NCBI GenBank assembly: GCA_040003745.1
Contig: JBDUBZ010000001.1
Location: 1 to 45,003, forward strand
Direction of reading: 5' to 3'
DNA: 45,003 nucleotides
Source: Terriglobia bacterium
Lineage (GTDB): Bacteria; Acidobacteriota; Terriglobia; Bryobacterales; Bryobacteraceae
The notes under the pieces were generated by a model. The model ran no database searches, was not told where the DNA came from, and saw only the letters and a program-made list of their open reading frames with translations. Shown one piece after another: positions 8,426 through 45,003 of this stretch (the stretch's first letter is position 1; the number at the start of each line of letters is the position of its first letter). The position numbers were made by a program, and so were the translations under genes.

Positions 8426-8429
8426 CGTC

Positions 8430-16294: not shown

Positions 16295-16307
16295 CGGGGG
16301 ACCTGAT

Positions 16308-30436: not shown

Positions 30437-30553
30437 AGGCGCTCAATCGTATCAGATAACTGCTTTGTCAGGATTCCGGGGCCATCGTGCGCAATTCATT
30501 GCAATATAGCCCCGGGTCCGCGCGATTATAATGGCCGCAAAACGGTTGGCCGG

Positions 30554-31141: not shown

Positions 31142-31162
31142 AAATTCTCCTTTTTCGATTTA

Positions 31163-31570
31163 CTACTTCTTCTTCGCGGGCTTGACCGTGAGCTCGTTTG
31201 TAACGTTCCCGGCCCCGGCCACTTCTGTCGCTTTGCTTTCAACCGCCTTACTTTCGTCGTCCGTGTGCACGGGTCCTTTCAGCGTGACCTTGCCATTTTG
31301 CGCGATCACTTTGACGTTGTGGGCATAAGTAGAAAGCGATTTATCCGCCACAATCGACTTGCGGATTTCCTTCATGATCTGAAGGTCGGACTTGTCGTTC
31401 TTAGCCTGATCCGCCGTCGGCTCTCCAGCCTTTCGGTCCCGCTTGTTTACGCCGGTGTTATCGGGTTGCCTGCCAGGAGCTTGCGAAAAAGCCGGAGCGG
31501 CGCAGAGCGCGCCCAGCAGTGTCGCAGAAACGAGAAATCTGTTCAGTCTGGTTACCATAATCCTCCGCAA
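31163..31570 (-). CDS. BON-domain (OsmY-like) periplasmic protein
   Basis: Signal peptide. BON pattern IRKSIVADKSLSTYAHNVKVIAQNGKVTLKGPVHTDDE...VAGAGNVTNELTV. An alternative start lies at Met5. Confidence 0.7.
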   Translation of the reverse strand: MRRIMVTRLNRFLVSATLLGALCAAPAFSQAPGRQPDNTGVNKRDRKAGEPTADQAKNDKSDLQIMKEIRKSIVADKSLSTYAHNVKVIAQNGKVTLKGPVHTDDESKAVESKATEVAGAGNVTNELTVKPAKKK

Positions 31571-31722
31571 GTGAGAAGCAAGATCGTTTCCATGGTTCTC
31601 ATAAGTACGAAGGCCGGGAATTTTTTTGAATTAAAATGTTGCCGGCCAGCCGCCATTCCGCGGTAGTAGCCCATCTGGCGTCGAACCCCCTGGTGAGAGA
31701 TGATTAAATTACAGGAGATCTA

Positions 31723-32727
31723 ATGGGACGCACTCTTCTTGAACAACTCCGTGAAATGACCGTCGTCGTTTCCGACACAGGCGATATCGAAGCCATTGAG
31801 CGCTTCCGGCCGCGCGATGCCACGACCAATCCATCCTTGATCACGGCTGCCGCTGAGATGCCAAAATATGCCGAAATCGTCGATGGCACCCTTATGCAGG
31901 CCCGTAAAGAACTGGGCGATTCAGCCGATCCCGGCAAAGTGGCATCCCTCGCCTTCGAGCGTCTCGCCGTGGCCTTCGGGAAACGGATTCTGAAAATTGT
32001 GCCGAAGCGTGTTTCGACCGAAGTCGACGCCCGTCTTTCTTACAAAACGGACGCCACAGTCGCCAAGGGCCGGGAAATTATTGCGCAGTATGAAGCCGAT
32101 GGAGTCCCTCGCGACCGCGTGCTGATCAAGATCGCATCTACGTGGGAAGGAATTCGCGCCGGCGAGATTCTCGAAAAAGAAGGGATCCACTGCAATCTGA
32201 CGCTGCTCTTCGGGCTTCATCAGGCGATCGCCTGCGCCGAGGCCGGCATCACGCTCATCTCTCCGTTTGTGGGCCGCATTCTCGACTGGTACAAAAAGGA
32301 CACGGGGCTGAATTACGCGCCCGCCGAAGATCCTGGTGTCATCTCCGTGGGCAGCGTCTACAACTATTACAAGAAGTTCGGCTACAAGACCGAGGTGATG
32401 GGCGCCAGCTTCCGCAATATTGGTGAAATAACCGAGCTTGCCGGCTGCGATCTGCTCACCATCTCTCCCGCGCTGCTCGCCGAGCTCGATTCCACTGAAG
32501 CGGATCTGCCCCGCAAGCTCGATCCCGAAAAGGCCAAAGGCATGGCGATTGAGCGGATTCCCATGGACAAAGCCACCTTCGACCGTATGCATGCCGAAAA
32601 CCGCATGGCGTCGGATAAGCTGACCGAGGGCATCGCTGGGTTCACGAAAGCGCTTGAGAATCTTGAGACCATACTCGCCCACCGGATAGCCGCTCTCGAT
32701 GAGCAGGCCCAGCCGGCGCTCGTCTGA
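31723..32727 (+). CDS. tal: Transaldolase
   Basis: Motifs [18 protein letters not shown] and catalytic-Lys context KIASTWEGI. 334 aa. Confidence 0.9.
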
Positions 32728-33709
32728 GTCTGTGCATTCCGTACGGGACTGCACACCCACATTGGAACTGTGCCATGTGGTGCGGGATTTTCCCGGCCAC
32801 CGCGCCGTGGATAGAATTTCGCTGCAACTGGAGCCCGGCGGTTTTTATTCGCTGCTTGGTCCCTCGGGGTGCGGCAAGACGACAACCCTGCGGCTGATCG
32901 GTGGCTTCGAAACGCCGGATGCGGGCGAAATTCTGCTTAATGGAATTGGGGTCGGCAGTCTCAAACCGTGGCAGCGCAATGTCAGCACAGTCTTCCAGAA
33001 TTATGCTCTGTTTCCGCATCTGACGGCGCTTGGCAACATCGAGTTCGGCCTGCGCGAGCGGGGCGCCGCGAATTTCAGACAGGCCGCTAAAGACGCGCTC
33101 GCCCTGGTTCAGCTCAGCGACAAGGCATCGCGATATCCAGCTCAGCTCTCCGGCGGCGAGAAGCAGCGCGTGGCGCTGGCGCGCTCGATCGTGCTCCAGC
33201 CGCAGTTGCTGCTGCTTGACGAACCACTGGCTGCCCTGGACCCGAAACTGCGCGCCCAGATGCGCGGCGAACTCAAGGCCATGCAACGCCAGACGGGGAT
33301 AACCTTCCTTCTCGTAACTCACGATCAGGAAGAGGCCTTGTCGCTTTCGGATAAACTTGCCGTGATGAATCGCGGCCGAATAGAACAATTCGGAACTCCC
33401 GAAGACGTCTATCTTCGCCCGGCAACTCCGTTCGTCGCGGGTTTTATCGGGGATGTGAACTGGTTCGGAAGCGCGGGCGTGCGGCCGGAATCCATCAGAG
33501 TGACCACGGCGGCGGTTGCCGGGCCGAGAAGTTGCCCGGCGTCCGTCGAAAGCACTCTCTTTCTGGGCAACTGTACGCAGGTGCATGCGAAGTTCGCAAG
33601 CGGCGTACAGGTCGTGTCCCGCCTGACGCCGGCGTCGGCTGCGCGCTTTGCGCCGGGCGAGAATGTCTTTATTCAGTGGGACGAAGCCGATGAGCTGCAC
33701 TTCGAATGA
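32699..33709 (+). CDS. potA: Spermidine/putrescine-type ABC transporter ATP-binding protein
   Basis: Walker [10 protein letters not shown], signature LSGGEKQRV, Walker B LLLLDEP. ATG 32699 overlaps the tal 3' end. The alternative GTG 32732 lies just after the tal stop. Confidence 0.8.
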
Positions 33710-34536
33710 ATTTGCGCAGATGGTTTCTGCTCCCCGCCCGCGTGTGGATGGCGCTATCTTTCGCGGCTCCGCTCGCCTTCGTCTGCGGCTACGCTTTTCT
33801 GACCCGGGGTGATTTTGGCGGCGTCGATCGGCCCTGGACACTGGAAAGCTTCGCCCGCCTGGCCGACCCGATTTACCTCGGCATCCTCTGGCGCTCCGTC
33901 TGGATCGCCGCCGCCGCGACCGCGTCCTGTGTGCTCCTCGGCTTCCCCCTTGCCCTCTTCATTGCCAGGGCGGGGAAGCGGCGCAACCTCTACCTGCAAC
34001 TGGTGCTGCTGCCCTTCTGGACCAGCTTTCTGGTTCGCACCTATGCCTGGCTGTTCATCCTTCGCGAGACGGGACTGGTGAACACAATTCTCATGGGGCT
34101 GCATGTCATCCATTCGCCTATCCAGCTCCTGTATAACGACGGGGCGGTGCTGCTCGGCCTGGTTTATAACTTCCTGCCATTCTTCGTGCTGCCGCTCTAC
34201 GCGACGCTCGAAAAGATGGATCCCTTACTGCTCGAAGCCGCCGCCGACCTGGGCGCGAAGCCGCGCCGGGTCTTATGGCGCGTGATCGTTCCGCTTTCCG
34301 CACCCGGCATCGCCGCGGGTTCGGTGCTGGTCTTCATCCCCTGCCTGGGAGCGTATCTGACGCCCGATCTGCTCGGTGGCGGTAAATCGATCATGCTGGG
34401 CAACCTGATTCAGAACCAGTTCACGACTTCCCGCGACTGGCCCTTCGGGTCTGCCGCTTCCATCGTGCTGATGCTGACCGGGGCGCTGCTGCTTTCCGCC
34501 CTGCTGCGCAGCCGCGCCGCGCGCGAGCTCTTGTGA
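33706..34536 (+). CDS. potB: ABC transporter permease (PotB-like)
   Basis: Six-TM pattern with an EAA-type loop (LLEAAADLGAKPRRVLWRVIVPL). ATGA overlap with potA. Confidence 0.8.
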   Translation: MNLRRWFLLPARVWMALSFAAPLAFVCGYAFLTRGDFGGVDRPWTLESFARLADPIYLGILWRSVWIAAAATASCVLLGFPLALFIARAGKRRNLYLQLVLLPFWTSFLVRTYAWLFILRETGLVNTILMGLHVIHSPIQLLYNDGAVLLGLVYNFLPFFVLPLYATLEKMDPLLLEAAADLGAKPRRVLWRVIVPLSAPGIAAGSVLVFIPCLGAYLTPDLLGGGKSIMLGNLIQNQFTTSRDWPFGSAASIVLMLTGALLLSALLRSRAARELL

Positions 34537-35294
34537 GAAGCCGCTGGCTTGCCGTGTATTCCGGGGCGCTGCTCGCGTTTCTGCATGCTCCGTTGCTGGT
34601 GTTGATCGTTTTCAGTTTCAACGCCAGCCGCTTCACCGTCTGGGAGGGGTTTTCCCTGCGCTGGTATGGGGCGGCCGTGAACGATCCGCAATTGAGCGAA
34701 TCGCTGGTCAACAGCCTCATCATCGCGGGTGTTTCTTCTGTGCTCGCAACCCTCATCGGGACGCTCGCCGCTTATGCCATCTGGAGGCGCGCCGCACCAG
34801 TCTTTTCAGGGTCGCTCTATCTTTCGCTGATCACGCCGGAAATCGTCAGTGGCGTTTCGTTGCTGGCGCTGTTCCAGTGGTTCTTCCGGTTCGCCCATCT
34901 CAAACTGGGCATGTATACAGTGGTCATCGCACACGTGGCGTTTTCCCTTGCCTATGTCGCGATCGTGATTTCCGCCCGCCTCAAAAGCTACGACCGATCG
35001 CTCGAAGAAGCCGCGCTCGACCTGGGCGCCACCGAATGGCGGGCTTTCCGCAAAGTTACGCTGCCGTTTCTCGCGCCCGCGGTGGCTGCGGCGTTCCTGC
35101 TGGCGCTGGTCGTCTCGTTCGACGACTACGTCATCACCAGCCTGGTCGCGGGCGTCGATTCCGAAACCCTGCCCATGGTCATCTATGCCATGGCGCGGCG
35201 CGGCGTCAGCCCCGTCGTAAACGCGGTGTCCTCACTCATCCTGATCGCCTTTGGAGGCATCATTCTGATTTCGCAAAGGTTGCAGAGGCAATGA
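34533..35294 (+). CDS. potC: ABC transporter permease (PotC-like)
   Basis: EAA-type loop (LEEAALDLGATEWRAFRKVTLPF). 4-nt overlap with potB. Confidence 0.8.
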   Translation: MRSRWLAVYSGALLAFLHAPLLVLIVFSFNASRFTVWEGFSLRWYGAAVNDPQLSESLVNSLIIAGVSSVLATLIGTLAAYAIWRRAAPVFSGSLYLSLITPEIVSGVSLLALFQWFFRFAHLKLGMYTVVIAHVAFSLAYVAIVISARLKSYDRSLEEAALDLGATEWRAFRKVTLPFLAPAVAAAFLLALVVSFDDYVITSLVAGVDSETLPMVIYAMARRGVSPVVNAVSSLILIAFGGIILISQRLQRQ

Positions 35295-35317
35295 CGGCAG
35301 CCAGGGAAATGAAATAA

Positions 35318-36319
35318 ATGCAGCGCCGCGGCTTTCTCTTCGCGGGCGCCGGAGCGCTTTCGTGCGCCCGCGACAAGCGGCCGCGGCTCAACGTTTATAA
35401 CTGGTCGGCCTACATCGATCCCGCGATGCTGGCGCGCTTTGAAGCCGAGCGGGGCATTCGTATCCGCTACGGCACCTATGAGAGCAATGAAGAGATGCTG
35501 GCGAAAATCGCCAGCGGAAATTCAGGCTGGGACGTGGTCTTTCCCACCCACAGCCGCCTCGCGCCCATGGCGGCTCATGGGTTGATCGCACCGCTCGATC
35601 ACAGGCGGCTGCCGGGCCTGCAAAATCTCGACGTAAGGTTCCAACGCCCCGTGTGGGATCCGACCATTCAATGGGGCGTCCCCTACATGTGGAACGCCAC
35701 CGGGATCGCGTATAACAAGGCGGAAGTGCCCCAGCCGCACGGATGGGAGGCCCTGTGGTCCCCCGCGCTGCGCGGTCGCATGACCATGCTCGACGATCCC
35801 GAAGACGTGATCGGTGCTTGTCTCGAAAAGCTGCACTTCCCCTTCAGTTCCGGAGACGAAGCTCAATTGACGGCCGCCGCAGCCGAAGCCATTCGACAAA
35901 AGCCACTGCTGCGCGGTTATATCAACGCGGAAGTTCGCGATCAGCTCACCGCCGGCGATGTTCTCGCCTGTCAGCTTTGGTCCACTACCGCGGCCCAGGC
36001 CATAAGGGCCAACCGCAATCTGGGTTTTGCGTTCCCGGAAGAAGGCTATCCGCTCTACTGCGATTGCGCTGTGGTGTTGCGGGAAAGCACCCGTTATGAG
36101 CTCGCTCACGAATTCTTAGATTTTCTCCTCAGGCCCGACGTAGCACTGGCTAACTCCCGGGTTGCCGATACCGCCACAGCTGTTAAAGTCGATGACTCTC
36201 ACGACGTTGTACTGTATCCACCAGGAAGTATTTACAGGACTGGCGTGTGGGTGGCCGCTTTGCCGGTTCAGGCGCAGAAGATACGCGACATCCTCTGGAC
36301 GCGGATCAAGGCAGTATGA
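35318..36319 (+). CDS. potD: Polyamine-type periplasmic substrate-binding protein (PotD/PotF-like)
   Basis: The LNVYNWSAYIDP..., WDVVFPT and VPYMWNATGIAYN motifs are typical of PotD/F. Confidence 0.75.
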   Translation: MQRRGFLFAGAGALSCARDKRPRLNVYNWSAYIDPAMLARFEAERGIRIRYGTYESNEEMLAKIASGNSGWDVVFPTHSRLAPMAAHGLIAPLDHRRLPGLQNLDVRFQRPVWDPTIQWGVPYMWNATGIAYNKAEVPQPHGWEALWSPALRGRMTMLDDPEDVIGACLEKLHFPFSSGDEAQLTAAAAEAIRQKPLLRGYINAEVRDQLTAGDVLACQLWSTTAAQAIRANRNLGFAFPEEGYPLYCDCAVVLRESTRYELAHEFLDFLLRPDVALANSRVADTATAVKVDDSHDVVLYPPGSIYRTGVWVAALPVQAQKIRDILWTRIKAV

Positions 36320-36555
36320 GCTTATTTATACCTTTGATCGCGCCAGTTTTTCTTCTCTCGTAGTAGTTCTGATTCTCGTGACCTGCATAAGCGACACTGG
36401 TGCTTTCTAATGTGCGGAGTCGCGCATAGTGCAGGTTCTAGCTCATTGTTCCGAACTGCCTCTTTAACCTAAAATTGAAGGAGAGTTGCTTCCTTCAGGA
36501 GAAGCTAAGTCAATAGCACTTTTAAGGGATGCAATCAGTAAGGAGAAGTCGCAAC

Positions 36556-37329
36556 GTGAAAATATTTTCAATACAAAAATCGGTCTTATATCTGGTTGCC
36601 TTTGGAGGCAGTTTATTCATACCAGGCGCTTTCGGGGCTGCTATCGTGGGCACTCTGCAAATCGGAAACGGAGTGGTTGCGGTCAACGGGTCGCCTGTCA
36701 GCGGCTGCATCGACTTTTACAACCTCAACCCAGGCTGCGGGACACCTGGCATGTTTACTGTGAATGCTCCGCCTGACGGCGTCTTTGCTGCCGCGCTCGG
36801 TACCAGCGACAACGTTATCAAAGACATGCAGCAGACATTTCCGATTGCCAAGTTTATTTCCCTGCCGAGCATAAACGTATTCTTCGATCTCCCCTCTCTT
36901 ACTGTGAATCCGTTTATTGCGGGGGATTGCAGCGCCACCGCGACGGGGATCAATCAATCCTGCTCGCCTGCCGGATCGCCGTTCACCATCGTAAACAGCA
37001 CCACGATGGATGCCAATGGCAAAGCCAACAGCGCGACCGTCAAGCTGGACGTCAATCTGTTCGGATACCAGGGGACGACGGCTGATGGCATGACCGGGTA
37101 CCGGGGAACGTTCACAACACAAATCACACTGGTCGATGGGGGCAGTGCCAACATTGCGACCATACTGGCAGCTCTCAACAAGGGCGAAACACTCTCGGGC
37201 AATTCCTATTCGGCAACGCTTTCGCCGAACGGCGTCATACCGGAGCCCGGCTCCTGGGTCATGCTCTTGACCGGGATTGGAATGCTGGCCATCGGGATGA
37301 TAGCGAAGCGCCGCGCTTCGCGCGTCTGA
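36556..37329 (+). CDS. PEP-CTERM sorting-domain protein
   Basis: C-terminal VIPEPGSWVMLLTGIGMLAIGMIAKRRASRV (PEP motif, TM segment, basic tail). Start chosen at GTG 36556, 7 nt after AAGGAGAAG. N-terminal signal sequence present. Confidence 0.8.
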   Translation: MKIFSIQKSVLYLVAFGGSLFIPGAFGAAIVGTLQIGNGVVAVNGSPVSGCIDFYNLNPGCGTPGMFTVNAPPDGVFAAALGTSDNVIKDMQQTFPIAKFISLPSINVFFDLPSLTVNPFIAGDCSATATGINQSCSPAGSPFTIVNSTTMDANGKANSATVKLDVNLFGYQGTTADGMTGYRGTFTTQITLVDGGSANIATILAALNKGETLSGNSYSATLSPNGVIPEPGSWVMLLTGIGMLAIGMIAKRRASRV

Positions 37330-37368
37330 CCGCGTTCACGAGGCTGAAAGAAAGCCGCCCGGCGGATG

Positions 37369-37407
37369 ATGAACAGGGGTGAAATATCCCCTGTTCATTT
37401 TTGTTTT
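37369..37407. terminator. Bidirectional intrinsic terminator between the PEP-CTERM gene and the glycosyltransferase gene
   Basis: Perfect 11-bp stem: ATGAACAGGGG (37369-37379) with CCCCTGTTCAT (37388-37398), and an 8-nt loop. It is followed by TTTTTGTTTT on the plus strand. The right arm contains the glycosyltransferase stop codon (37395-37397). Confidence 0.75.
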
Positions 37408-38645
37408 GTGACGTTCACGATCGTGTCGGCTGCGGCCTTAGTGCCGCCCGCTGTCCGGATGCTCTCCGCGATGCGCCGGGCGTTTGCGGCGAACGACTCC
37501 CCTGCCAGCACTTTGCGCACGGCTTCTCGAAGACGGCCGGGATTCAGCGACCCGAAGGAAACAATCTCTCCAGCGCCCGTGTATCTCAACCTTTCCGCAA
37601 TGGCAGGTTGTTCGTAGGTAATTGGAATCGCCACCGCCGGTACTCCGCAGCTCAGGGAATCGAGCACCGTGTTCAGCCCGGCGTGCGTAATCGTAAGACG
37701 CGCGCGGGCGAGCACTTCCAGTTGCGGCGCATAGCCAACCACCAATGGTCCGCGCGGGAGCGCAGCTACGTCGGCCTCCGTCAGGCCTCCGCCGTGTGTG
37801 ACGACCAGTTGAACATCAAGGTCCGCACAAGCCTCCGCAAAGCAACGGAACACTGGCAGACGATTGTTTTGGAGTGTTCCGAGCGAGGCATAGATCAAGG
37901 GGCGGCCATCGAGCCTTTCCCAGGGAAACGGAATCGGCGCGGGCAGCGGTCCCCGAAGCGGACCGGCGTAATGAAAGTTTGCAGGCAGCCGGCTCCGGGG
38001 ATAATCGAACAGCTTTGGTTGCTGACTGATCTGTGCCAATGGTGAAAAGGTCTCTTCCATCGTCGCCATTGGGCGCAAGCCCCAGTCCCGGCGGCAGCCG
38101 TTCAGGATGGTCGTGACCGGTTTCAAAAACCGGTCGGATATCGCATATCCCAGACGATTCCGTGCGCGCCCAAACCACGAGTCGTTATAACTCCAGTCTG
38201 CAAACGCGGGCGGAAGAGACGGCTCCCGGTTGAGCGCTAATGCGTTGCACACAGTTACAAAAGGTAAGTCCAGATATTCCGCTATCGAGCCCCCCGCCCC
38301 TTCGGTCTGATCCACGAGCAGCGCTGTAACGCCGGCGTTCCCGATCGCCCGCGGCCCGTCCCGAAGCATCATCTCAGTGGTTTCGGCGATCATACGGATT
38401 GTGAATCGCAGGGCGGCGAGGCCCTGATAGCGGCTGAGTTGAGCCAGCGCCACCGGCAATGAACCGGCAGGATGGCTGCCGCGTCCCACCGAAATGTATT
38501 CGAGGCCTTCGCGCCGCGCCCGCTCCTCAAGATCGGGCATGTGAATCAGCGAAACGCGATGGCCCCTGCCGATGAGTTCACGTCCAAGCGCGCCGAACGG
38601 ATGCAGATGACCGGGGACGGGCGGGCTGATGATCCCGAAATGCAA
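37395..38645 (-). CDS. GT1-family glycosyltransferase (MGT/UDP-glycosyltransferase type, CrtX-like)
   Basis: N-terminal GIISPPVPGHLHPFGALGRELIGRGHRV. C-terminal nucleotide-sugar motif THAGLNTVLDSLSCGVPAVAIPITYEQPAIAERL. Start chosen at TTG 38645 (LHFGII...), 1 nt after the desaturase stop. The longer track ORF to 38918 overlaps the upstream gene. Confidence 0.8.
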   Translation of the reverse strand: MHFGIISPPVPGHLHPFGALGRELIGRGHRVSLIHMPDLEERARREGLEYISVGRGSHPAGSLPVALAQLSRYQGLAALRFTIRMIAETTEMMLRDGPRAIGNAGVTALLVDQTEGAGGSIAEYLDLPFVTVCNALALNREPSLPPAFADWSYNDSWFGRARNRLGYAISDRFLKPVTTILNGCRRDWGLRPMATMEETFSPLAQISQQPKLFDYPRSRLPANFHYAGPLRGPLPAPIPFPWERLDGRPLIYASLGTLQNNRLPVFRCFAEACADLDVQLVVTHGGGLTEADVAALPRGPLVVGYAPQLEVLARARLTITHAGLNTVLDSLSCGVPAVAIPITYEQPAIAERLRYTGAGEIVSFGSLNPGRLREAVRKVLAGESFAANARRIAESIRTAGGTKAAADTIVNVTKQK

Positions 38646-38646
38646 A

Positions 38647-39702
38647 TCAATCTCTCGCTTTGCCCGCGATAAGGCCGTGCAGAGCGCGATACAGGCTCGC
38701 GCTGCGGGTTGTGCAATAACTCGAATCCGGCGGCAGAGCCGCTCGCAATCGCCGGTGGGCCGCGGCCAGATTGTGATACGGAATGCCGGGAAAGTAATGG
38801 TGCAGCGCGTGATAGCGCAAGCCAACCGGTGCCCAGAGTTCAGTCCACAGGCGCCCGGGGACATCGACCGAATCGCGCAGCTGTCCTTCGCGGTCGAGCG
38901 GCCCGCCCTCGCTCTCATAGCGGTGCGCCGCCAGCGTGCGAAGGGTGTTCAGGAAACTCGCAGCGCTCACGACTGCGAACCACGTCACGAAAACACGCAT
39001 CGGAAGTAACGCGGCCGCCACAGCCCACAGCAGCAGCAGCAGCGCCGTGTCCCGCCGGATCTTCCGCATCAATTCCGGTGTGACCTCGCGGCGGTACGCC
39101 AAATTCATCGTGAGAGCCGAAGCGTGCCTGGCCAGCCAGCGCTGCAATCGCGGAATCAGAAGACTGAGGGGGCCCACGACCAGAAAGCGCACCAACAGCG
39201 CCGCTGGAATCAGAAAACTCTCGAGGGCGAAGACCACGGTCATGCCGCGTGAACGCGCGAACGGAAGATACTCCGGATCTCCCGACGTGCCGTAGCTTGA
39301 AAGGCTGTGATGCGCCTGATGAACACCCACGTACATGAAGGATGGCATCAGCAATGGAAACCCCGCGAGCAGGTTCCAGGTCGTCTCAAACCCGCTCAGC
39401 GCGCTTCGCTTTATATGGCTGATCTCGTGCAGAAAGCACAACGCGCGATAGAGAGCCAGCACGGCAACGGTTCCGAAGATCGGTGTGGCGATTGAAACCG
39501 GCCGCGCGGCGGCGTAACCAAATGAGACCCAGCCGACACACGCGCTCAGGATCAGATCGGGCCAGTAGAAAGCCGGGCGCGGAATGTGCAAGTCCCGTAC
39601 CAGACTTTTCGCGTGACGGTCTGCCTGGTCGAAAGGCATTGACTCGACGGCCGGGGACTCAAAGCCCGTTGACCTCACAGCATTGACCTTCACAACGCCC
39701 AT
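38647..39702 (-). CDS. Membrane fatty-acid-desaturase-family di-iron enzyme (desaturase/hydroxylase)
   Basis: Three His boxes (HEISH, HQAHH, HALHHYFPGIPYHNL) and several TM segments. The ATG lies 1 nt after the upstream gene's TAA. Confidence 0.75.
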   Translation of the reverse strand: MGVVKVNAVRSTGFESPAVESMPFDQADRHAKSLVRDLHIPRPAFYWPDLILSACVGWVSFGYAAARPVSIATPIFGTVAVLALYRALCFLHEISHIKRSALSGFETTWNLLAGFPLLMPSFMYVGVHQAHHSLSSYGTSGDPEYLPFARSRGMTVVFALESFLIPAALLVRFLVVGPLSLLIPRLQRWLARHASALTMNLAYRREVTPELMRKIRRDTALLLLLWAVAAALLPMRVFVTWFAVVSAASFLNTLRTLAAHRYESEGGPLDREGQLRDSVDVPGRLWTELWAPVGLRYHALHHYFPGIPYHNLAAAHRRLRAALPPDSSYCTTRSASLYRALHGLIAGKARD

Positions 39703-39703
39703 T

Positions 39704-41239
39704 TTACGGTTTGGCCTGAAGATAGCGCCCCGGCGCGAGGATATTGTTGGGATCGACGGCCCGCTTCAGCGTCCGCAGCAATGCGCTGCCGCCATTCATC
39801 GACTGAATGCCGAGCCGATAGGGGTAAAACCCGCGCTCCGCCAGCGCAGCTTCCGTGGCGCGATAACAAGCCATCGCGCGCTCGTCTTCACCTTGCACCT
39901 CGCGGTCATAGGCAATGGAGATGACGCACGCGACGGATCTTTCCGTGATCATCGTGAGCGAAATGAGCGGTTCAAAGCCGTGCGCCAGCAGCGTGCTTTC
40001 GGCGATACCCACGAGTTCGGAAACGCTTGCGCCTTCCGCCGGAGCCACGGGCGCGAGCCAGATCAGGCCGCACCGGTCGCGATCGGGATTGGGGTCGGCC
40101 GGCGCCGGCGTCTTCTTGCGCCAGTACGCGCTCCCAAGCATAGCCGTGGTGGGTTCGCCCTTCATAAGCCCAAAGACAGGCCGTACGATTTCGAGCGTCT
40201 TCGAAAGATCGAGGCCCGTTGCCCAGCGATACGGGCGCGAAAACCGGGCAGCCAGCGCGAGCGTACGGTCGTCCAGAAACTGAATCTTCGAAACTTTCCC
40301 CTTCAACGCCCGCCGCAGCATCCGCCTCGCCTCGGCCACCTGCGCGCGCGTGCCGTAAAGCGCTCCCGAGCCGTTCCATCGCCCGAACTTCAGCTTCGCC
40401 GCGTAGCCTTTCATCGTCTCCGGCATTAGCGGCGTTGTTTCGCCTTCGGGAAACTGCTGCAGGCCATTCAGCACTTTATAGTCGTTCGCAATGTGAACCG
40501 TGCTGCGCAGCGTACCGTTCATCCGCAGGGGCCGCAGCGCGTCTATGAACTCTCCAAGCGCTTTCTGTTCGGGCGATTGAAAGAACCACGCCTGGAAGTA
40601 TTCGGGCGCCGGCATCAGCCAGATCGACATTCGCATTACGATGCCCAGATTCGATTGCGAGAAAAGTCCGTCGAGCGATGGGCCTGAACCCCACCGGTAC
40701 ACCTCCGCCGCCTTCGCCTGAGGCATTCCCGCGAACCCTGTTCCGGCAATCTCGCCACTGGGAAGAACCACCTGCAAGCCGCAGACGTTCGCGAAATGGT
40801 CGCCGTAAGGGGTATGGCCGAACCCGCGCTCCACTGCGTTTCCAATCAGGCTGCAATCCGGGCTCGAACCCGTCGCGTCCATCCACAGCCCCGAGCCGCG
40901 CTCTTTCAGGAACGCAAAAAGCTGCCGCTGCGTGACGCCCGGCTCCACCGTCACGTAGCCCAGCCGCTCGTTAAGCTCCACAATGCGATTGATGCGGCTG
41001 AGATCGAGCAGCACGCACCCATCGGCAGGTGGGACTCTCGACCCATAGCCCCAGTTCCTGCCACTGCTCACGGGATAAACGGGCGTGCCGCTGCGATTCG
41101 CCTCACGCATGCACTCCTGTACTTCCTCGAGAGAACGCGGCTGCAGAATTCCGCGAATCGACTGGGTGGTGAAAAACGTGGCCGTCTGCGCCTCGCAAAG
41201 ACGCTGAGTATCCGTATCGGCGGGAAGGCTGGGGCTCAC
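39704..41239 (-). CDS. FAD-binding oxidoreductase, VAO/PCMH family
   Basis: PCMH-type FAD-binding domain (PRSLEEVQECMREANRSGTPVYPVSSGRNWGYGS...LDLSRINRIVELNERLGYVTVEPGVT). C-terminal RAVDPNNILAPG. GTG start at 41239. Confidence 0.8.
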   Translation of the reverse strand: MSPSLPADTDTQRLCEAQTATFFTTQSIRGILQPRSLEEVQECMREANRSGTPVYPVSSGRNWGYGSRVPPADGCVLLDLSRINRIVELNERLGYVTVEPGVTQRQLFAFLKERGSGLWMDATGSSPDCSLIGNAVERGFGHTPYGDHFANVCGLQVVLPSGEIAGTGFAGMPQAKAAEVYRWGSGPSLDGLFSQSNLGIVMRMSIWLMPAPEYFQAWFFQSPEQKALGEFIDALRPLRMNGTLRSTVHIANDYKVLNGLQQFPEGETTPLMPETMKGYAAKLKFGRWNGSGALYGTRAQVAEARRMLRRALKGKVSKIQFLDDRTLALAARFSRPYRWATGLDLSKTLEIVRPVFGLMKGEPTTAMLGSAYWRKKTPAPADPNPDRDRCGLIWLAPVAPAEGASVSELVGIAESTLLAHGFEPLISLTMITERSVACVISIAYDREVQGEDERAMACYRATEAALAERGFYPYRLGIQSMNGGSALLRTLKRAVDPNNILAPGRYLQAKP

Positions 41240-41257
41240 GTCCTTGAATATAGCTGC

Positions 41258-42109
41258 TCAGGCCGCCAGTCGCATGCCGCCCGGCGCTATTTCGGACACT
41301 GCCGCGAGAGAGGGAACCCCGCTGATGACCCGCCGCCGCGAAGGGCGCTCGGGGCATATCACCGGAACTGCCGCGAGCGTCCGGCGGATGCACTCGATCG
41401 AATCTTCATAACGAGGGTTCGGTTTGCGCGAATCGTAGCGAAGCATGTGCATCCGACAGTCGTAGTGGGCGTCGTAATAGGGTGGAATCTCCGTGCCAGC
41501 CCACTGCACCGAACCGCCGCCCAGCCGGCGCAGGATCGATGCCGAGCCATTTCTCTCCGTGGCGGTGCTGAGCCCGATGGCTCCGCCGATCAGGCGGGAC
41601 CATGCATACGTCACCAGTACGCTCCGCAGACACTCGGCCGTGCAGCGAATTTCGGGTGCGATCGCCCAGCCGCCTACTTCTACAAACGAGCATCCACGCC
41701 TGCGGGCCAGCCAAAGGTCATCTTCCACCCCGGCCCGTGTTATGGTTCCCCATGCATCGGATAAAGCGAGTGAGCTTTGGCTGACGCAAAGGTCGTCGAA
41801 GCGTGTTCCGGTTCCGTGCTGAAGATAGCGAGTACATCCGAGAACCTCGCCTGCCCTGCCCAGCGTCAACAGATGCCAGCTCTGATCGTCCGTAGGCAGG
41901 ATGTGGCGCCCGTCCCGTGAAAGCTGTTCTTTAGTGATTGCGCCGTCTTCCAGATAAAGCCGGCCCCGCAGGCGCTGCATTTTCGATTTCAACGAATCGT
42001 ATAAGGTGTAATTCTGGCGCGCGGCGGAAAAAACGCCCCGCGTGTCTACCCCAGCCGGCGCCAAAAAAGCAAGAGACCGACGGCTAGTACCGGGCATGGA
42101 AACGTTCAA
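41258..42109 (-). CDS. GNAT-fold acyltransferase resembling LuxI/FeeM-type N-acyl amino acid (autoinducer-like) synthases
   Basis: The pattern LRGRLYLEDGAI...DGRHILPTDDQSWHLL...EVLGCTRYL...VEVGGWAI...ATERNGSASILRRLGG...YYDAHYDCRMHML matches the layout of the autoinducer-synthase/NAS superfamily. The assignment is by eye only. TTG 42109 lies 11 nt after GGAGGA; the alternative is ATG 42097. Confidence 0.45.
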   Translation of the reverse strand: MNVSMPGTSRRSLAFLAPAGVDTRGVFSAARQNYTLYDSLKSKMQRLRGRLYLEDGAITKEQLSRDGRHILPTDDQSWHLLTLGRAGEVLGCTRYLQHGTGTRFDDLCVSQSSLALSDAWGTITRAGVEDDLWLARRRGCSFVEVGGWAIAPEIRCTAECLRSVLVTYAWSRLIGGAIGLSTATERNGSASILRRLGGGSVQWAGTEIPPYYDAHYDCRMHMLRYDSRKPNPRYEDSIECIRRTLAAVPVICPERPSRRRVISGVPSLAAVSEIAPGGMRLAA

Positions 42110-42392
42110 AATATTACGATTCCTCCACTAGAATTGTATGTTTTAGTACACATATAGTCGGACGTGAAAAACTCGCAACTTTATTTTGGTTCCATAAAAA
42201 TATTGGAATTCGGATCGGAATTGTGATCTGTTACACAGTTTGGCTATCTAACTTGCACCATAGTACGGGTACCAGGCACTCCGGTCAATCCCTTAAATAC
42301 GGAATATTGCGTGTTTTCTGAATTAATATTCACTTCTCCGGATAAACGATGACATAGTCGCACTATTTAGGTAATTACAAATACATAAAACA
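42110..42392. other. AT-rich (about 36% GC by hand count) non-coding region upstream of the 4-gene operon
   Basis: I hand-counted 102 G+C in 280 nt (42111-42390), against visibly GC-rich flanks. No convincing ORF. Confidence 0.8.
42222..42237. promoter_or_regulatory. CRP/FNR-family-like palindrome TGTGATCTGTTACACA
   Basis: TGTGA-N6-ACACA compared with the CRP consensus TGTGA-N6-TCACA (9 of 10 core positions). It is flanked by AAT/GTT and centred about 120 nt upstream of the operon start codon. Confidence 0.35.
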
Positions 42393-42673
42393 ATGCTACG
42401 ACTCGATCTGGGCGCTGCTTTTGTGACAGTCTTTGAGGTCGTCGAGCTCGTAGTTCCGAATTTCCGGAACTTGAGCGCGCCACCTCTCTACTATTTCGCC
42501 ATCAGCCTGTTTACTTCTTCTGTCTACAGCGTGCGGGAGGTTGGATTTGCGTGCGCATCGCCGCACAGAGGAGGCATGCCCGCCATCTGGCTGGGGGCAA
42601 GTCTGGCAACACGCCGGGTGCGAGTCACCTCCGTGCCAAACCCAAAGGCCCGCGCCGCGGCAGGGGCTGAGGT

Positions 42674-43354
42674 TCATTTGCCCAGAAGGTCGGGGCGCCA
42701 CTTTTTGGTCTTCTCGATAGCGGCCAGCCCCCGCCATTTGCGAATTTCCGCGTGATTACCGCTGAGCAGGATCTCGGGAGCTTTCCATCCCCGGAAATCC
42801 GCAGGCCTGGTCCATTGCGGGCAGTCGAGAATGCCTTCCTCGAAGGATTCGTTGACCGACGATTCGCTGTTTCCCAGCACCCCCGGCAGAAGTCGCGCTA
42901 CGGCATCGATCACAACGGCCGCGGCCAGTTCACCGCCGCTCAGCACGAAATCTCCAATGGAGATCTCGTCGTCTGCCAGATGCTCCGCCACGCGTTCATC
43001 CACGCCTTCGTAACGCCCGCAGATCAGCAGCAGTTCTTCGCAGGCGAGAAATTCGCGCGCTACGTGCCGGTCGAAGCGGCGGCCCTGCGCGGAGAGCAGA
43101 ACCACCCGGCGCTGGGGAGTTCGCTCCGGCCAGATACTTTCCACCGCGCTGAAGATGGGCTCGGGCTTGAGCAGCATACCCTCGCCGCCGCCGAAGGGCC
43201 GGTCGTCCACCGTGCGATGCACGTCGTGCGTCCAGTTGCGAAGATCGTGGATGGCGATCGAGAGAATTCCGGTCTGCGCGCCCCGCGCCACCACGCCATG
43301 CTGAAACGGCCCGGTGAAGAACTCGGGGAATATGGTGAGCAGGTGAAACTTCAT
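42674..43354 (-). CDS. trmD: tRNA (guanine37-N1)-methyltransferase
   Basis: ICGRYEGVDERV, SIGDFVLSGGELAA and GNHAEIRKWR motifs. Confidence 0.9.
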   Translation of the reverse strand: MKFHLLTIFPEFFTGPFQHGVVARGAQTGILSIAIHDLRNWTHDVHRTVDDRPFGGGEGMLLKPEPIFSAVESIWPERTPQRRVVLLSAQGRRFDRHVAREFLACEELLLICGRYEGVDERVAEHLADDEISIGDFVLSGGELAAAVVIDAVARLLPGVLGNSESSVNESFEEGILDCPQWTRPADFRGWKAPEILLSGNHAEIRKWRGLAAIEKTKKWRPDLLGK

Positions 43355-43902
43355 TCCTGCGTGAGAGTCTCGAGGCCTTCGGGCAGCGCCACACGGATCA
43401 GGCGCTCGGCCGGGCGAATATCCGTACAGATCGCTTTGACAAAAGGAATCAGCAGGCGGCCGTCATCGATTTCGAGCATAGAAGGCCCGCCGTAATCGTC
43501 GAAGCCCGTTACCACACCGATTTCGCGATCCGACACGGCATCGAGCACTCTGCAGCCCACCAGGTCCGAATGGAAGTATTCGCCCGGATCGAGCGCCACC
43601 CGCTCCCTGCCGGGCACGCGCACTTCGAGACCGCGCAGTTTTTCCGCGTCGTCGATGGAATCGACGCCCTTAAATTTGAAAATGAGCGTACCCTGGTGGT
43701 CCCAGACGCTCTCGATCTCAAAAGGCCTGCCATCTCCGGTTTCCCCAAACAACTGGACGAGTTTCAGACCGGGAAACCGATCCGGCTTACTCGAAAGAGA
43801 ATGCGCGGTCACTTCGCCCTTGTTGCCCCGCGCGCGTCCCAGAACGGCGATGGTCACCCATTCAGGAACAACCAACCCGCCCGGTGCGGCGTCGTTATTC
43901 AA
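43351..43902 (-). CDS. rimM: 16S rRNA processing protein RimM
   Basis: RGNKGEV motif and a PRC-barrel C-terminus. 4-nt overlap with trmD. Confidence 0.85.
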
Positions 43903-44125
43903 GAATTTCCAGCGTAAAGCGGCGATGCAGCTTCATGCCGGCGGCGCCGAGAATGGTGCGGATGGAACGTGCGGTCCGGCCCTGCTTCCCGATGACTTTA
44001 CCGAGATCGCCCGGCGCGACCTTCAGCTCGAGCACCGTGATCTGCTCGCCCTCAATGGAACTGACCACCACGTCGCCCGGCTGGTCGACCAGCGCCTTCG
44101 CAATGTCTTCAATTAGTTGTTTCAT
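43895..44125 (-). CDS. KH-domain RNA-binding protein (UPF0109/YlqC-like)
   Basis: 76 aa with the KH GXXG motif [16 protein letters not shown]. Conserved position between rpsP and rimM. Confidence 0.85.
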
Positions 44126-44182
44126 GAATGTAACCAGCGTCTACCGGTAAAAACCACCGGGCACATCCCGTACGCCGCCTGA

Positions 44183-44434
44183 TCAGGCAACCGCGGGTAC
44201 GGGAGGATTCTTCTTCACCAGCCGCGCCACCGTGTCGGACATCTGCGCGCCGTTCTTGATCCAGTGATCGATGCGCTCGTGTTCGAGCTTCACCTTCGCC
44301 GGTTCCGTGAGCGGATTGAAATGTCCCACCACTTCGATATTGCGGCTGTCGCGGGCGCGCTCTTTCTCAATCACCACGATGCGGTAAAACGGCTTCTTTT
44401 TGGCTCCGAAACGGGCCAGTCTGATCATCAGCAT
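44183..44434 (-). CDS. rpsP: 30S ribosomal protein S16
   Basis: MLMIRLARFGAKKKPFYRIVV... is canonical S16. Confidence 0.9.
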   Translation of the reverse strand: MLMIRLARFGAKKKPFYRIVVIEKERARDSRNIEVVGHFNPLTEPAKVKLEHERIDHWIKNGAQMSDTVARLVKKNPPVPAVA

Positions 44435-44472
44435 TTCTTATGTGTTCCTTCAACCTTGTCTAAAATCCGGTT

Positions 44473-45003
44473 CTAAAAGCCTGGTAATCCGAGCTTGCCC
44501 AGACCGCCCATCTTCCCCATTTTTTTGCCAAGGAAGCCCAGGTTGCCGGAAAGGCTCTTCATCATTTTGCGCGCCTGCCCGTATTGTTTGAGCAGACTGT
44601 TAACATCCTGCACGGAAGTTCCGCTGCCGCGCGCAATGCGCCGCCGCCGGCTTCCGTTAATAATCATATGGTTATCGCGCTCGCGCGGCGTCATCGAATC
44701 GATAATCGCCACAATGCGGGTCAGTTCTTTTTCGTCCGGCTGCGCGTTCTGCAGCTCTTTCATGATGCCGACCTTCGGCATCATCTTCAGAATGGAATCG
44801 AGCGAACCGAGCTTACGCAGCGACTTCAGCTGATCGCGAAAATCTTCCAGCGTAAACTCATTGTCGATCAGCTTGCGCTGCATCTCCTCCTGCTGTTTGG
44901 AGTCGAATGCTTCCTGCGCTTTCTCGACGAAACTGACAATATCGCCCATCCCCAGGATGCGCGAAGCCGCACGATCGGGATGGAATGGCTCAAATGCATC
45001 GGC
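44473..45003 (-). CDS. ffh: Signal recognition particle protein Ffh, C-terminal part (partial, continues beyond the window)
   Basis: M-domain motifs FHPDRAASRILGMGDIVSFVEKA and RRRRIARGSGTSVQDVNSLLKQY. The frame stays open to position 45003. Confidence 0.9.
   Translation of the reverse strand, partial: ADAFEPFHPDRAASRILGMGDIVSFVEKAQEAFDSKQQEEMQRKLIDNEFTLEDFRDQLKSLRKLGSLDSILKMMPKVGIMKELQNAQPDEKELTRIVAIIDSMTPRERDNHMIINGSRRRRIARGSGTSVQDVNSLLKQYGQARKMMKSLSGNLGFLGKKMGKMGGLGKLGLPGF

Follow-up and report, generated by a model that had tools for sequence, protein, structure and literature searches.

The four closely packed minus-strand genes described here, which lie in a 45,003-nucleotide stretch of Terriglobia bacterium DNA (hereafter the window) beside a convergent gene for a PEP-CTERM protein, form a real, conserved Acidobacteriota operon. 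Our analysis favors, with a probability of about 0.55, a cassette that would make a tyrosine-derived N-acyl lipid by acylation, enamide formation, desaturation or hydroxylation of the chain, and glycosylation. An earlier note on this DNA had suggested an N-acyl, possibly aromatic, amino acid as the starting compound, followed by oxidation, desaturation or hydroxylation, and glycosylation; this is kept as the best reading, with an aromatic amino acid. The same note called the enzyme combination undescribed, which holds for the full combination, for which there is no published precedent, but not for its first two steps, which have published precedents in FeeM/FeeG and CndG, nor for a glycosylated enamide, exemplified by hyellamide.

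Operon organisation and conservation

The ORF coordinates confirm the tight packing noted earlier, with gaps of 18, 1, and 1 nt between genes 1 and 2, 2 and 3, and 3 and 4, and a terminator scan of the window gave no conspicuous terminator-like site inside the four-gene unit. Gene content and order recur in numerous species-level genomes even though protein identity is only 40-65%, which is more than chance would produce. Co-localisation was counted on the full-flank loci of 54 species-level Acidobacteriota genomes. Here, the synthase-like gene 1 is accompanied by a specific PEP-CTERM family in 93% of loci and by an adjacent flavoenzyme in 83%, so that synthase, PEP-CTERM protein, and flavoenzyme are the constant core, while all five genes occur together in 41%. 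The expectation of a single co-conserved unit is therefore borne out for gene order but not for the desaturase and GT1 module, which is found in ~44% of these loci and also stands alone. Neighbors in relatives include MacAB-like and LolA-like/DUF1302 ABC systems and a PEMT/ICMT-like methyltransferase, which fit an exported lipid product, and some relatives carry two GT1 genes. As the earlier note stated, the window has no ACP, adenylation, or PKS/NRPS genes in the ORFs covered by the Pfam scan, which did not include four larger ORFs, those at 29804-32727; for the genes at 32699-36319 and 42674-44949, identification was only by eye or through synteny with locus L001.

The acyltransferase and the flavoenzyme

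Gene 1 (41258-42109, minus strand) encodes an acyltransferase of 283 aa that resembles N-acyl amino acid synthases, with a TTG start. The database gene call uses a shorter start (240 aa); the long start is supported by homologues of ~288 aa with a conserved N-terminus, by residues 12-16 forming a confident strand in the AlphaFold model, and by a GGAGGA motif 11 nt upstream. The protein has no Pfam or NCBIfam match at E≤0.01, and the HMM check proposed in the earlier note (Acetyltransf_5, TIGR03694, Autoind_synth) likewise returned nothing at that threshold, with no match at all to TIGR03694 and E=0.077 for the FeeM HMM, so the family stands as a distant sister to these rather than within them. 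Among 40 relatives, weak matches are found to FeeM (29), TIGR03694 (24, best 5e-5), Acetyltransf_5 (23, best 9e-6), and the AHL synthase TraI (23). It is an unannotated Acidobacteriota family, with 482 database matches, every one named 'hypothetical', and 832 clusters at 50% identity. The LuxI/FeeM-type GNAT fold proposed for gene 1 is upheld by the AlphaFold model (pLDDT 87), whose top PDB fold matches are BjaI, LasI, RpaI, and FeeM (2g0b) at E 1e-6 to 5e-5 and TM 0.60-0.69, with the AHL synthases outscoring FeeM by a small margin. Residues invariant in the homologue alignment include R48, D66, D74, W78, H79, R94, and E144. We infer tyrosine as the amine substrate solely from the neighboring gene.

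That neighbor, gene 2 (39704-41239, minus strand; 511 aa, GTG start), follows gene 1 directly, on the same strand, in 39 pairs, with gaps mostly of 0-46 nt. It encodes an FAD flavoenzyme of the VAO/PCMH family, as predicted earlier, matching PF01565 (1.5e-29) and, by sequence, the PDB entries for nsVAO (9FGE, 7e-79), VAD (8S7R, 6e-74), PCMH (7e-72), and VAO (6e-60). Y65 (in GRNWGYG) and Y474/R475 (in YPYR) align with the phenolate-binding Tyr/Tyr/Arg, a triad invariant in 48-49 of 49 orthologues, and together with the PDB matches this places the protein in the 4-phenol-oxidising subgroup. The residue at the histidyl-FAD position is Leu392, which parallels the non-covalent nsVAO. Where oxidases have Asp/Leu beside flavin N5, gene 2 has the small residues Gly124 and Ser125, and the enzyme may thus be a dehydrogenase with some other electron acceptor rather than an oxidase; no cytochrome c gene adjoins it.

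The pairing of synthase and flavoenzyme resembles that of FeeM and FeeG, which are partners in the fee eDNA cluster. FeeG and CndG are VAO/PCMH 4-phenol oxidases that convert N-acyl-tyrosine to an enamide by oxidative decarboxylation via a quinone methide (PMC11350588, PMC8762209), and in the hyellamide cluster a FeeG homologue and a glycosyltransferase together yield a glycosylated enamide derived from N-acyl-tyrosine (PMC11959600). We propose that gene 2 is a FeeG/CndG-like oxidase acting on N-acyl-tyrosine, its likeness to FeeG, CndG, and HyeB being drawn through the common subgroup and not through direct sequence comparison.

The desaturase-like enzyme and the glycosyltransferase

Gene 3 (38647-39702, minus strand; 351 aa, ATG start) encodes an integral-membrane di-iron enzyme of the fatty-acid-desaturase/hydroxylase family. 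Its start is uncertain, with the database gene call beginning further in (314 aa). The His-box desaturase-like assignment made earlier is sustained by the match to PF00487 (1.7e-28) and by three His boxes (H92xxxH96, H128xxHH132, H298xxHH302) which, like H260 and H310, do not vary across 24 orthologues; the protein has hydrophobic stretches at ~71-91, 153-186, and 217-251. Named NCBIfam models cover the third His box only (GntB 5.6e-7, CrtR 0.024, DesA 0.3), and sequence search returned no solved homologue. Gene 4 (37395-38645, minus strand; 416 aa, TTG start) follows gene 3 in 22 of the 24 full-flank loci that have gene 3. Its longest ORF reaches 38918, a start that would overlap gene 3 by 270 nt. 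The protein is an MGT-like, GT1-family nucleotide-sugar glycosyltransferase, an assignment that agrees with the earlier one and is founded on Pfam matches (UDPGT, EryCIII-like_C, Glyco_tran_28_C) and sequence matches to PDB GT1 structures down to 1e-34; the TIGR01426 MGT score of 172.5 bits is under the cut-off of 260. Motifs are PGHLHP at the N-terminus and THAG...YEQP at the C-terminus.

The PEP-CTERM partner

The convergent gene (36529-37329, plus strand) encodes a 266-aa protein that scores above cut-off for PF07589 (21.2 bits against 20.7) and TIGR02595 (18.2 against 16), in agreement with its earlier identification as a PEP-CTERM protein. Its parts are a signal peptide, an N-terminal domain of ~200 aa that is specific to the family and has a GSPF motif and a conserved pair of Cys, and an IPEP, TM, and KRR tail; a VPEP/TM/basic tail is present in 48 of 49 clustered relatives. 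No other partner of gene 1 is as constant as this protein: when the tail is left out, an HMM of the N-domain detects the family in 50 of the 54 full-flank loci, and of the 83 ORFs with a PEP-CTERM tail in 1.41 Mb of loci, 64 are members of this single family. An association of N-acyl amino acid synthases with PEP-CTERM/exosortase systems was reported by Craig et al. 2011, as given in the passages citing that work in PMC7293339 and PMC4897644. Of the tracking with PEP-CTERM/exosortase systems anticipated for this locus, the PEP-CTERM link is far stronger than first seen, while an exosortase gene lies within 10 kb at one related locus only.

Proposed pathway and alternatives

In the pathway that we propose from fold and genomic context, the gene 1 product would be a cytoplasmic acyltransferase that moves a long fatty acyl group from an acyl-ACP or acyl-CoA of primary metabolism to the amino group of L-tyrosine, with the invariant Glu144 as candidate general base. 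Judging from active-site conservation and from FeeG and CndG, gene 2 would then act as a 4-phenol oxidase with non-covalent FAD, holding the phenolate through Tyr65, Tyr474, and Arg475 and taking a hydride from the benzylic carbon to form a p-quinone methide. This intermediate would probably decarboxylate to N-acyl-4-hydroxystyrylamine (the enamide); collapse to an alpha,beta-dehydro- or beta-hydroxy-tyrosine is less likely. Where present, the putative gene 3 desaturase would desaturate or hydroxylate the acyl chain of the tyrosine-derived lipid, and the GT1 would add a sugar to putative acceptors, the phenol or the new hydroxyl, with two sugars perhaps attached in relatives that have two GT1 genes. 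The pathway would end in a glycolipid of the membrane or surface, with a role tied to the dedicated, exosortase-sorted PEP-CTERM surface protein family beside the locus.

The same architecture could also work without decarboxylation, with gene 2 giving N-acyl-alpha,beta-dehydrotyrosine or N-acyl-beta-hydroxytyrosine and the carboxylate kept; the product would then be a glycosylated analogue of the thalassotalic acids or stieleriacines. We regard this as unlikely. In its favor, 4-phenol oxidases form the quinone methide from which all three outcomes start (PMC7617285, PMC11350588), bacteria are known to make N-acyl dehydrotyrosines (PMC12479983, PMC7378531), and the PEMT/ICMT-like, carboxyl-type methyltransferase that adjoins synthase paralogues in some relatives would make sense if the carboxylate were retained. 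In known dehydrotyrosine producers, however, a TyzC-like nitroreductase with a ThiF protein, rather than a VAO enzyme, is credited with the double bond (PMC12479983). Pfam/NCBIfam found neither protein in the gene cluster of the window, nor was either among the scanned recurrent neighbor families of related loci, where most neighbor genes carry no annotation, and the sole characterised VAO-type enzymes on N-acyl-tyrosines, FeeG and CndG, decarboxylate. It is more doubtful that two modules are merely adjacent, with synthase, flavoenzyme, and PEP-CTERM protein serving one molecule and desaturase and GT1 a different membrane lipid. The desaturase is absent from 56% of full-flank loci, desaturase-GT1(-GT1) sets occur without adjacent synthase or flavoenzyme (L085, L086/L087), and the desaturase family is far larger than that of gene 1 (at least 3653 matches against 482), so this pair might act on another lipid. 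The close spacing of the window genes and the lack of a prominent internal terminator-like site argue otherwise, as do the presence of the flavoenzyme in all 24 of the full-flank, synthase-anchored loci with a desaturase and the survival of the association in Vicinamibacteria despite rearrangement to a divergent layout.

That gene 1 is instead a LuxI-like signal synthase, or a 4-hydroxyphenyl-alkanoyl transferase of the aryl-HSL type with the phenol in the acyl part of a diffusible signal, seems improbable. In favor of it, CoA-dependent AHL synthases head the fold matches of gene 1, the p-coumaroyl-HSL synthase RpaI among them, the AHL synthase model matches weakly in relatives as noted above, and a two-component system recurs near some related loci. 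Yet in an alignment with LasI, the only LuxI-type enzyme compared by sequence, the Trp conserved in the N-terminal, SAM-binding region falls on the invariant Ala57 and the ExSR-type Arg after Glu144 is absent; moreover, no LuxR-type autoinducer receptor gene is adjacent, the membrane desaturase and lipid-type exporters suggest a long-chain lipid, and the PEP-CTERM link characterises N-acyl amino acid synthases and not AHL synthases. The carotenoid or terpenoid glycoside-ester locus raised earlier, with a CrtX-like GT, a CrtW/CrtR-like His-box enzyme, and an acyltransferase, is rejected as very remote. GT1 and His-box enzymes are known from carotenoid glycoside pathways and gene 3 has its weak CrtR match, but gene 2 encodes a 4-phenol oxidase instead of a carotenoid enzyme, and the acyltransferase has a LuxI/FeeM fold. 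Neither phytoene synthase, phytoene desaturase, nor cyclase was found in the Pfam-scanned window ORFs (29804-32727 lying outside the scan), and no carotenoid-type gene family recurs in the 79 related loci.

Non-coding features

A hairpin with a 12-bp stem and 8-nt loop (37368-37399) lies between the convergent genes and overlaps the stop codon of the GT1 gene. The bidirectional terminator claimed here is confirmed as a hairpin with a T-run on the plus strand, but the scan scored a terminator on that strand only, so bidirectional action is plausible as a possibility. Upstream of gene 1, an AT-rich leader and promoter region (42110-42400, minus strand; 36% GC) contains a sigma-70-like site at 42288-42260, and the low-GC region reported before the operon is reproduced, with a GC content of 0.36 at 42100-42399. 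The leader has no Rfam match, and no motif shared with the leaders of relatives was found, although AT-rich leaders also precede the gene 1 orthologues there.

Operon organization

Four minus-strand ORFs encode a synthase-like acyltransferase (gene 1, 41258-42109), a VAO/PCMH flavoenzyme (gene 2, 39704-41239), a predicted membrane desaturase or hydroxylase (gene 3, 38647-39702) and a GT1-family glycosyltransferase (gene 4, 37395-38645), while the gene for a PEP-CTERM protein (36529-37329) is convergent to the operon. The spacing of 18, 1 and 1 nt between the ORFs confirms an earlier note on this sequence, which had described four packed genes next to a PEP-CTERM gene. The operon leader, 290 bp at 36% GC upstream of gene 1, contains a sigma-70-like site and a GGAGGA motif ahead of the TTG start of gene 1; Rfam returns no match over 36000-43000, and the leaders aligned from 8 loci share no common motif. 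At the opposite end, a hairpin with a 12-bp stem (37368-37399) overlaps the last stop codon of the operon and lies between it and the PEP-CTERM gene. This element had been taken for a strong bidirectional terminator, and the hairpin between the convergent genes is indeed present, but because it scores as a terminator on the plus strand only, the term bidirectional is unproven. For gene 1 and gene 3 the automatic gene caller of the protein database proposes shorter readings, of 240 aa and 314 aa. The longer version of gene 1 is correct, since its homologues are ~288 aa long and its N-terminal 43 residues are both conserved and within the confidently modelled fold. Among the scanned ORFs of the window, a set that excludes four larger ORFs at 29804-32727, there are no exosortase, ACP, adenylation or PKS/NRPS genes, as had been remarked for the last three classes.

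Conservation across Acidobacteriota

A pattern scan with one genome per species recovered 126 relatives, from which the best 79 loci were kept, all of them from Acidobacteriota MAGs (Bryobacterales, Terriglobia, Vicinamibacteria and Acidobacteriaceae). HMMs made from the proteins of the locus served to count co-localization at up to 10 kb from the synthase (the gene 1 homologue), in the 54 loci with full 10-kb flanks. The PEP-CTERM family, detected with an HMM of its N-domain only, accompanies the synthase in 50 of these loci (93%), the flavoenzyme in 45 (83%), the GT1 in 29 (54%) and the desaturase in 24 (44%), with all five genes found together in 22 (41%). The gap between synthase and flavoenzyme is mostly 0-46 nt across loci. 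What is conserved as a unit is a core of synthase, PEP-CTERM protein and flavoenzyme, to which an optional desaturase-GT1 module is added. The suggestion that the four genes are co-conserved in order thus holds in part: the order synthase, flavoenzyme, desaturase, GT1 and convergent PEP-CTERM gene recurs at 40-65% identity, but the desaturase-GT1 pair is optional. Among ORFs with PEP-CTERM-like tails in 1.41 Mb of loci, 64 of 83 belong to a single N-domain family, and the PEP-CTERM link is therefore family-specific and no by-product of a large number of PEP-CTERM genes.

A further check proposed in the earlier note was whether the four genes track exosortase genes; they track the PEP-CTERM family but not the exosortase itself. 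EpsH and EpsI genes occur in one related locus (L004, 2716-4258), ~6 kb upstream of a synthase-flavoenzyme-desaturase-GT1-GT1 cluster, and tblastn and jackhmmer searches with the L004 EpsH/EpsI, a one-seed approach of low sensitivity, detect no exosortase near the other loci or in the window.

The Vicinamibacteria carry the same genes in a divergent layout. In four of their loci (L058, L061, L064 and L065) the GT1 and desaturase genes point away from the synthase and flavoenzyme genes, and near these clusters lie an AMP-binding (adenylating) enzyme and a 2-oxoacid_dh-type acyltransferase; in this lineage a dedicated enzyme may serve to activate the acyl donor. Five other loci (L039, L047, L060, L028 and L045) have, upstream of the synthase gene and adjoining a synthase paralogue, genes for an HlyD-like adaptor, an ABC ATPase, an FtsX/MacB-like permease and a PEMT/ICMT-family membrane methyltransferase, a block which suggests that an N-acyl amino acid is exported and possibly also carboxyl-methylated. 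A further set (L021, L023, L033, L048 and L051) has, downstream of the flavoenzyme, four other genes in place of the desaturase-GT1 module. They encode an ABC ATPase, an FtsX-type permease of 864 aa, a LolA_like protein for lipoprotein sorting to the outer membrane and a DUF1302-like outer-membrane protein, and together they look like a path by which lipid is exported to the outer membrane. These recurrent neighbours (MacAB-like and LolA-like/DUF1302 ABC systems and the PEMT/ICMT-like methyltransferase) fit an exported product of carboxyl or lipid type. The large unannotated ORFs that follow the desaturase or GT1 gene in loci L002 and L086 were considered as a recurring component and rejected, as they form two unrelated families.

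At least two synthase paralogues are present in 28 of the 79 loci. A frequent layout, in which a synthase gene is followed by a gene for a 122-aa protein, a PEP-CTERM gene on the opposite strand, and a second synthase with its flavoenzyme, is seen at about 7.4-10.8 kb in L015, L021, L024, L030, L033, L043, L048, L051, L054, L062, L070 and L071. The 122-aa protein has no Pfam match, and clustering of the paralogues gives no clean split by adjacent flavoenzyme.

The synthase-like acyltransferase

Against Pfam and NCBIfam, gene 1 has no match at E<=0.01, and up to E=10 the only match is FeeM (PF21926), below its gathering threshold (13.2 bits vs a cut-off of 27, E=0.077). The models with which the earlier note had proposed to check it fail on the window protein: Autoind_synth and Acetyltransf_5 (PF13444) do not match, and TIGR03694 gives nothing at E<=10 and hence stays below its curated cut-off. 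Among 40 relatives scanned singly, weak matches are found to FeeM (29), Acetyltransf_5 (23, best 9e-6), TIGR03694 (24, best E 5.4e-5) and Autoind_synth (9, best 0.014), and the model of the AHL synthase TraI matches 23. For the window protein itself the curated HMMs yield no more than the sub-threshold FeeM match, and fold comparison and family-wide scans are needed instead. A profile search of the PDB with the gene 1 family returns LasI as the sole match (E=0.13). With the family alignment as input, AlphaFold gives a confident model (pLDDT 87), whose best PDB fold matches are BjaI, LasI, RpaI, MesI, TofI and FeeM (2g0b), with E-values of 1e-6 to 3e-4 and TM of 0.60-0.69 on the target. With this confident model and these matches, the LuxI/FeeM-type GNAT fold predicted for gene 1, as proposed in the earlier note, is confirmed. 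[quoted passage not shown] Gene 1 has an invariant Glu144 on the central strand 141-150, a candidate counterpart placed by the family alignment and the AlphaFold model.

We treat the gene 1 family as a distant sister family outside the curated NAS and AHL-synthase families. It has 482 matches in the 90% database, all named 'hypothetical protein', and a representative-library search yields 832 clusters when grouped at 50% identity, of which 367 score below 1e-30; the best 150 matches of that search include no distant bridging relatives. The last ~25 residues of gene 1 (window 41258-41340) are disordered in the model. Most family members end in a conserved tail of the type ...W..(E/G)GVAPAA (columns 301-319 of family alignment A1), and the window protein ends in ...IAPGGMRLAA; this may be a docking or recognition tail.

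The flavoenzyme

Gene 2 matches FAD_binding_4 (PF01565, 1.5e-29), and its PDB sequence matches to nsVAO (7e-79), VAD (6e-74), PCMH (7e-72), VAO (6e-60), EUGO and others range from 7e-79 to 1e-54. Other classes of the VAO family match at 1e-17 or weaker, the next class being D-lactate dehydrogenase (5e-17). By sequence, gene 2 is a clear member of the 4-phenol-oxidizing subgroup of VAO/PCMH flavoproteins, in line with its earlier assignment as a VAO-type enzyme. The phenolate in VAO is bound by Tyr108, Tyr503 and Arg504. Aligned to these positions are Tyr65 (in GRNWGYG) and Tyr474/Arg475 (in YPYR) of gene 2, which are kept in 48-49 of 49 orthologues. The flavin-N5 pair of dehydrogenases is Pro/Ile plus a small residue. 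That of gene 2 is Gly124/Ser125 rather than the Asp/Leu typical of oxidases (PMC7617285), which leaves its electron acceptor uncertain. The position of the histidyl-FAD link is occupied by Leu392, which is Leu in 96% of the orthologues, as in the non-covalent nsVAO, so that gene 2 lacks the residue for a covalent 8-alpha-histidyl FAD, the Tyr-link position being unmappable; covalent FAD is not obligatory for the subgroup (PMC7617285). The 75-residue stretch 315-390 does not align to any solved 4-phenol oxidoreductase. This stretch and the Gly124/Ser125 pair may point to a cap reshaped to take a lipid substrate and to an unusual electron acceptor.

The closest solved structures, nsVAO from Novosphingobium (9FGE) and VAD from Marinicaulis (8S7x), resemble gene 2 in their FAD domain and carry the same Tyr/Tyr/Arg triad. 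In contrast to gene 2, which is coupled to an acyltransferase, both are catabolic on small (lignin) phenols (PMC7617285).

The desaturase, glycosyltransferase and PEP-CTERM protein

Gene 3 matches PF00487 with 100.5 bits (cut-off 29.7) and has invariant His boxes HxxxH, HxxHH and HxxHH along with three to four hydrophobic segments. It belongs to the membrane desaturase/hydroxylase superfamily PF00487; PDB sequence and NCBIfam comparisons find no close characterized relative. Gene 4 matches UDPGT, EryCIII-like_C and Glyco_tran_28_C in Pfam as well as GT1 enzymes in the PDB, and is a GT1 enzyme nearest to macrolide-type glycosyltransferases, although it is not a trusted MGT member (TIGR01426, 172.5 bits vs a cut-off of 260). 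Both assignments agree with the first reading of the sequence.

The PEP-CTERM protein passes PF07589 (21.2 vs 20.7) and TIGR02595 (18.2 vs 16), and its tail, IPEPGSWVMLLTGIGMLAIGMIAKRR, consists of a PEP motif, a TM helix and a basic cluster. The homologue search found 4 proteins, and the resulting AlphaFold model is unusable (pLDDT 39). The idea that gene 2 acts on a peptidyl-tyrosine just upstream of the PEP motif was dropped because that position is Tyr, Trp or Phe across family members.

A proposed pathway and its alternatives

We propose that the cassette makes an N-acyl-tyrosine that is oxidized, modified on its chain and glycosylated to a lipid, and we hold the four steps jointly at a probability of about 0.55. 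Gene 1 would N-acylate L-tyrosine with a long acyl chain from primary metabolism. Gene 2 would then oxidize the N-acyl-tyrosine via a quinone methide, most likely with decarboxylation to an enamide, after which gene 3 would desaturate or hydroxylate the acyl chain and gene 4 would glycosylate the phenol or the new hydroxyl. The analysis shows in what order the genes lie and how conserved they are, together with their folds, families and active-site residues; which substrates are used, how the oxidation ends, the regiochemistry of genes 3 and 4 and any role played in concert with the PEP-CTERM protein are inferred. In general outline this is the pathway of the earlier note, whose gene calls were right. 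To call the pathway wholly undescribed goes too far, since the synthase-plus-VAO step has been described before, as have glycosylated enamides.

The same pathway could run without decarboxylation and yield a dehydro- or hydroxy-tyrosine, which we consider unlikely, though the likeliest of the alternatives. The N-acyl dehydrotyrosine pathways (stieleriacines, thalassotalic and kyonggic acids, tyrazolones) likewise place a synthase first and oxidize the tyrosine side chain, and genes for a PEP-CTERM protein and a fatty acid desaturase are present in the putative Stieleria cluster as well (PMC7293339). Those products, however, are attributed to pairs of nitroreductase (TyzC-like) and ThiF-like proteins (PMC12479983), in whose place the window has a VAO/PCMH enzyme, and the window adds a GT1. 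A reading as two independent modules that lie side by side seems rather improbable to us; the desaturase-GT1 module is also found alone and the desaturase family is much larger than the synthase family, and in the full-flank loci the desaturase always occurs with the flavoenzyme and in 22 of 24 cases with the GT1.

That gene 1 is instead a LuxI-like or aryl-acyl signal synthase, a reading that its fold class brings to mind, is quite improbable: the window protein has no Autoind_synth match, the conserved SAM-binding Trp of LasI aligns to an invariant Ala57 in the gene 1 family, and no LuxR-type receptor gene is adjacent. A carotenoid glycoside locus (CrtX/CrtW/CrtR), raised earlier as the alternative, was rejected and retains a negligible probability, as no crt genes turn up among the scanned ORFs of the window or the recurrent neighbours in related loci and CrtR matches gene 3 only at E=0.024, over a single His box.

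Comparison with known systems

The decarboxylating pathway we favour has its nearest precedents in FeeG, which accompanies the synthase FeeM within the fee eDNA cluster, and in CndG from chondrochloren biosynthesis, both of the 4-phenol-oxidizing subgroup (PMC11350588, PMC8762209). Both convert an N-acyl-tyrosine to an N-acyl-4-hydroxystyrylamine by oxidative decarboxylation via a p-quinone methide (PMC11350588 section 5.2.1; PMC8762209), and the fee cluster turns long-chain N-acyl-tyrosine into enamide and enol esters. As in these systems, a LuxI/FeeM-fold synthase is paired here with a 4-phenol-oxidizing flavoenzyme, and the same quinone-methide decarboxylation is proposed; this putative FeeG/CndG-type role follows from subgroup membership and from the coupling of gene 2 to a synthase-like gene. 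Unlike the fee system, gene 1 is too divergent for the FeeM Pfam threshold and the window has no dedicated FeeL-like ACP gene; it adds to the FeeM/FeeG and CndG scheme a membrane desaturase, a GT1 and a dedicated PEP-CTERM protein, in an acidobacterial host.

The hyellamide (hye) cluster of Hyella patelloides combines a FeeG-type flavoenzyme and a glycosyltransferase in one locus, and its predicted product is likewise an N-acyl-tyrosine-derived enamide with a sugar, in a pathway that is itself only proposed (PMC11959600). Its acyltransferase, however, is of SGNH/GDSL type and not of LuxI/FeeM fold, and this cyanobacterial cluster has a sugar O-acetyltransferase and lacks a desaturase or PEP-CTERM gene (PMC11959600). 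We found no paper on the gene 1 family, nor any on Acidobacteriota that describes the synthase-plus-VAO step combined with a desaturase, a GT1 and a PEP-CTERM protein.

The PEP-CTERM link

A link between N-acyl amino acid synthases and PEP-CTERM/exosortase systems was reported in 2011, as the passages of PMC7293339 and PMC4897644 citing Craig et al. have it. The TIGR03694 acyltransferases resemble gene 1 in fold class and in genomic association with PEP-CTERM biology, but the window protein has no match to their model, the family's best E-value being 5e-5, and what gene 1 is associated with is a single, specific family of PEP-CTERM substrates and not the exosortase gene. To our knowledge, the synthase-exosortase link has never been explained since 2011. 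It is a speculative and improbable idea that the lipid or glycolipid of the cassette is not a free metabolite but takes part in exosortase sorting together with the co-encoded PEP-CTERM protein, either as the acceptor that receives the protein once it has been cleaved at the PEP motif, or as a lipid specifically bound and carried to the surface by the PEP-CTERM family. This would explain why the synthase co-localizes more steadily with one PEP-CTERM family (93%) than with any tailoring enzyme and, if true, would give the link a molecular meaning. Independently of it, the near-obligatory pairing with a single PEP-CTERM family offers a tractable handle on the synthase-exosortase sorting question.

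In soils, Acidobacteriota rank with the most abundant bacteria, and we know of almost nothing on their small-molecule and surface-lipid chemistry. The locus defines a sizeable acyltransferase family, of about 830 clusters at 50% identity in at least 126 species-level genomes, and all its names in the homologue list are 'hypothetical protein'. HMM-based annotation would probably miss the window protein, which reaches no curated NAS or AHL-synthase threshold in Pfam or NCBIfam.

Other genes of the window

By ORF reading and synteny with the related locus L001, trmD, rimM, rpsP and ffh lie on one side of the operon, and a pot-type ABC transporter on the other; farther off lie a PQQ dehydrogenase, TldD/PmbA and other unrelated genes. 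Large ORFs of 513-856 aa at 1544-4114 (minus), 19375-20979 (minus), 16218-17759 (plus) and 26724-28565 (minus)/26766-28688 (plus) have no Pfam match at 1e-5; the last two overlap on opposite strands, which makes the real gene at 26724-28688 ambiguous. At 6024-8431 (minus), the stop codon of a PQQ-dependent dehydrogenase gene overlaps the start codon of the cytochrome c gene that follows, and a gluconolactonase/aldose-epimerase fusion adjoins the two. This unit serves periplasmic sugar or alcohol oxidation and is unrelated to the operon.
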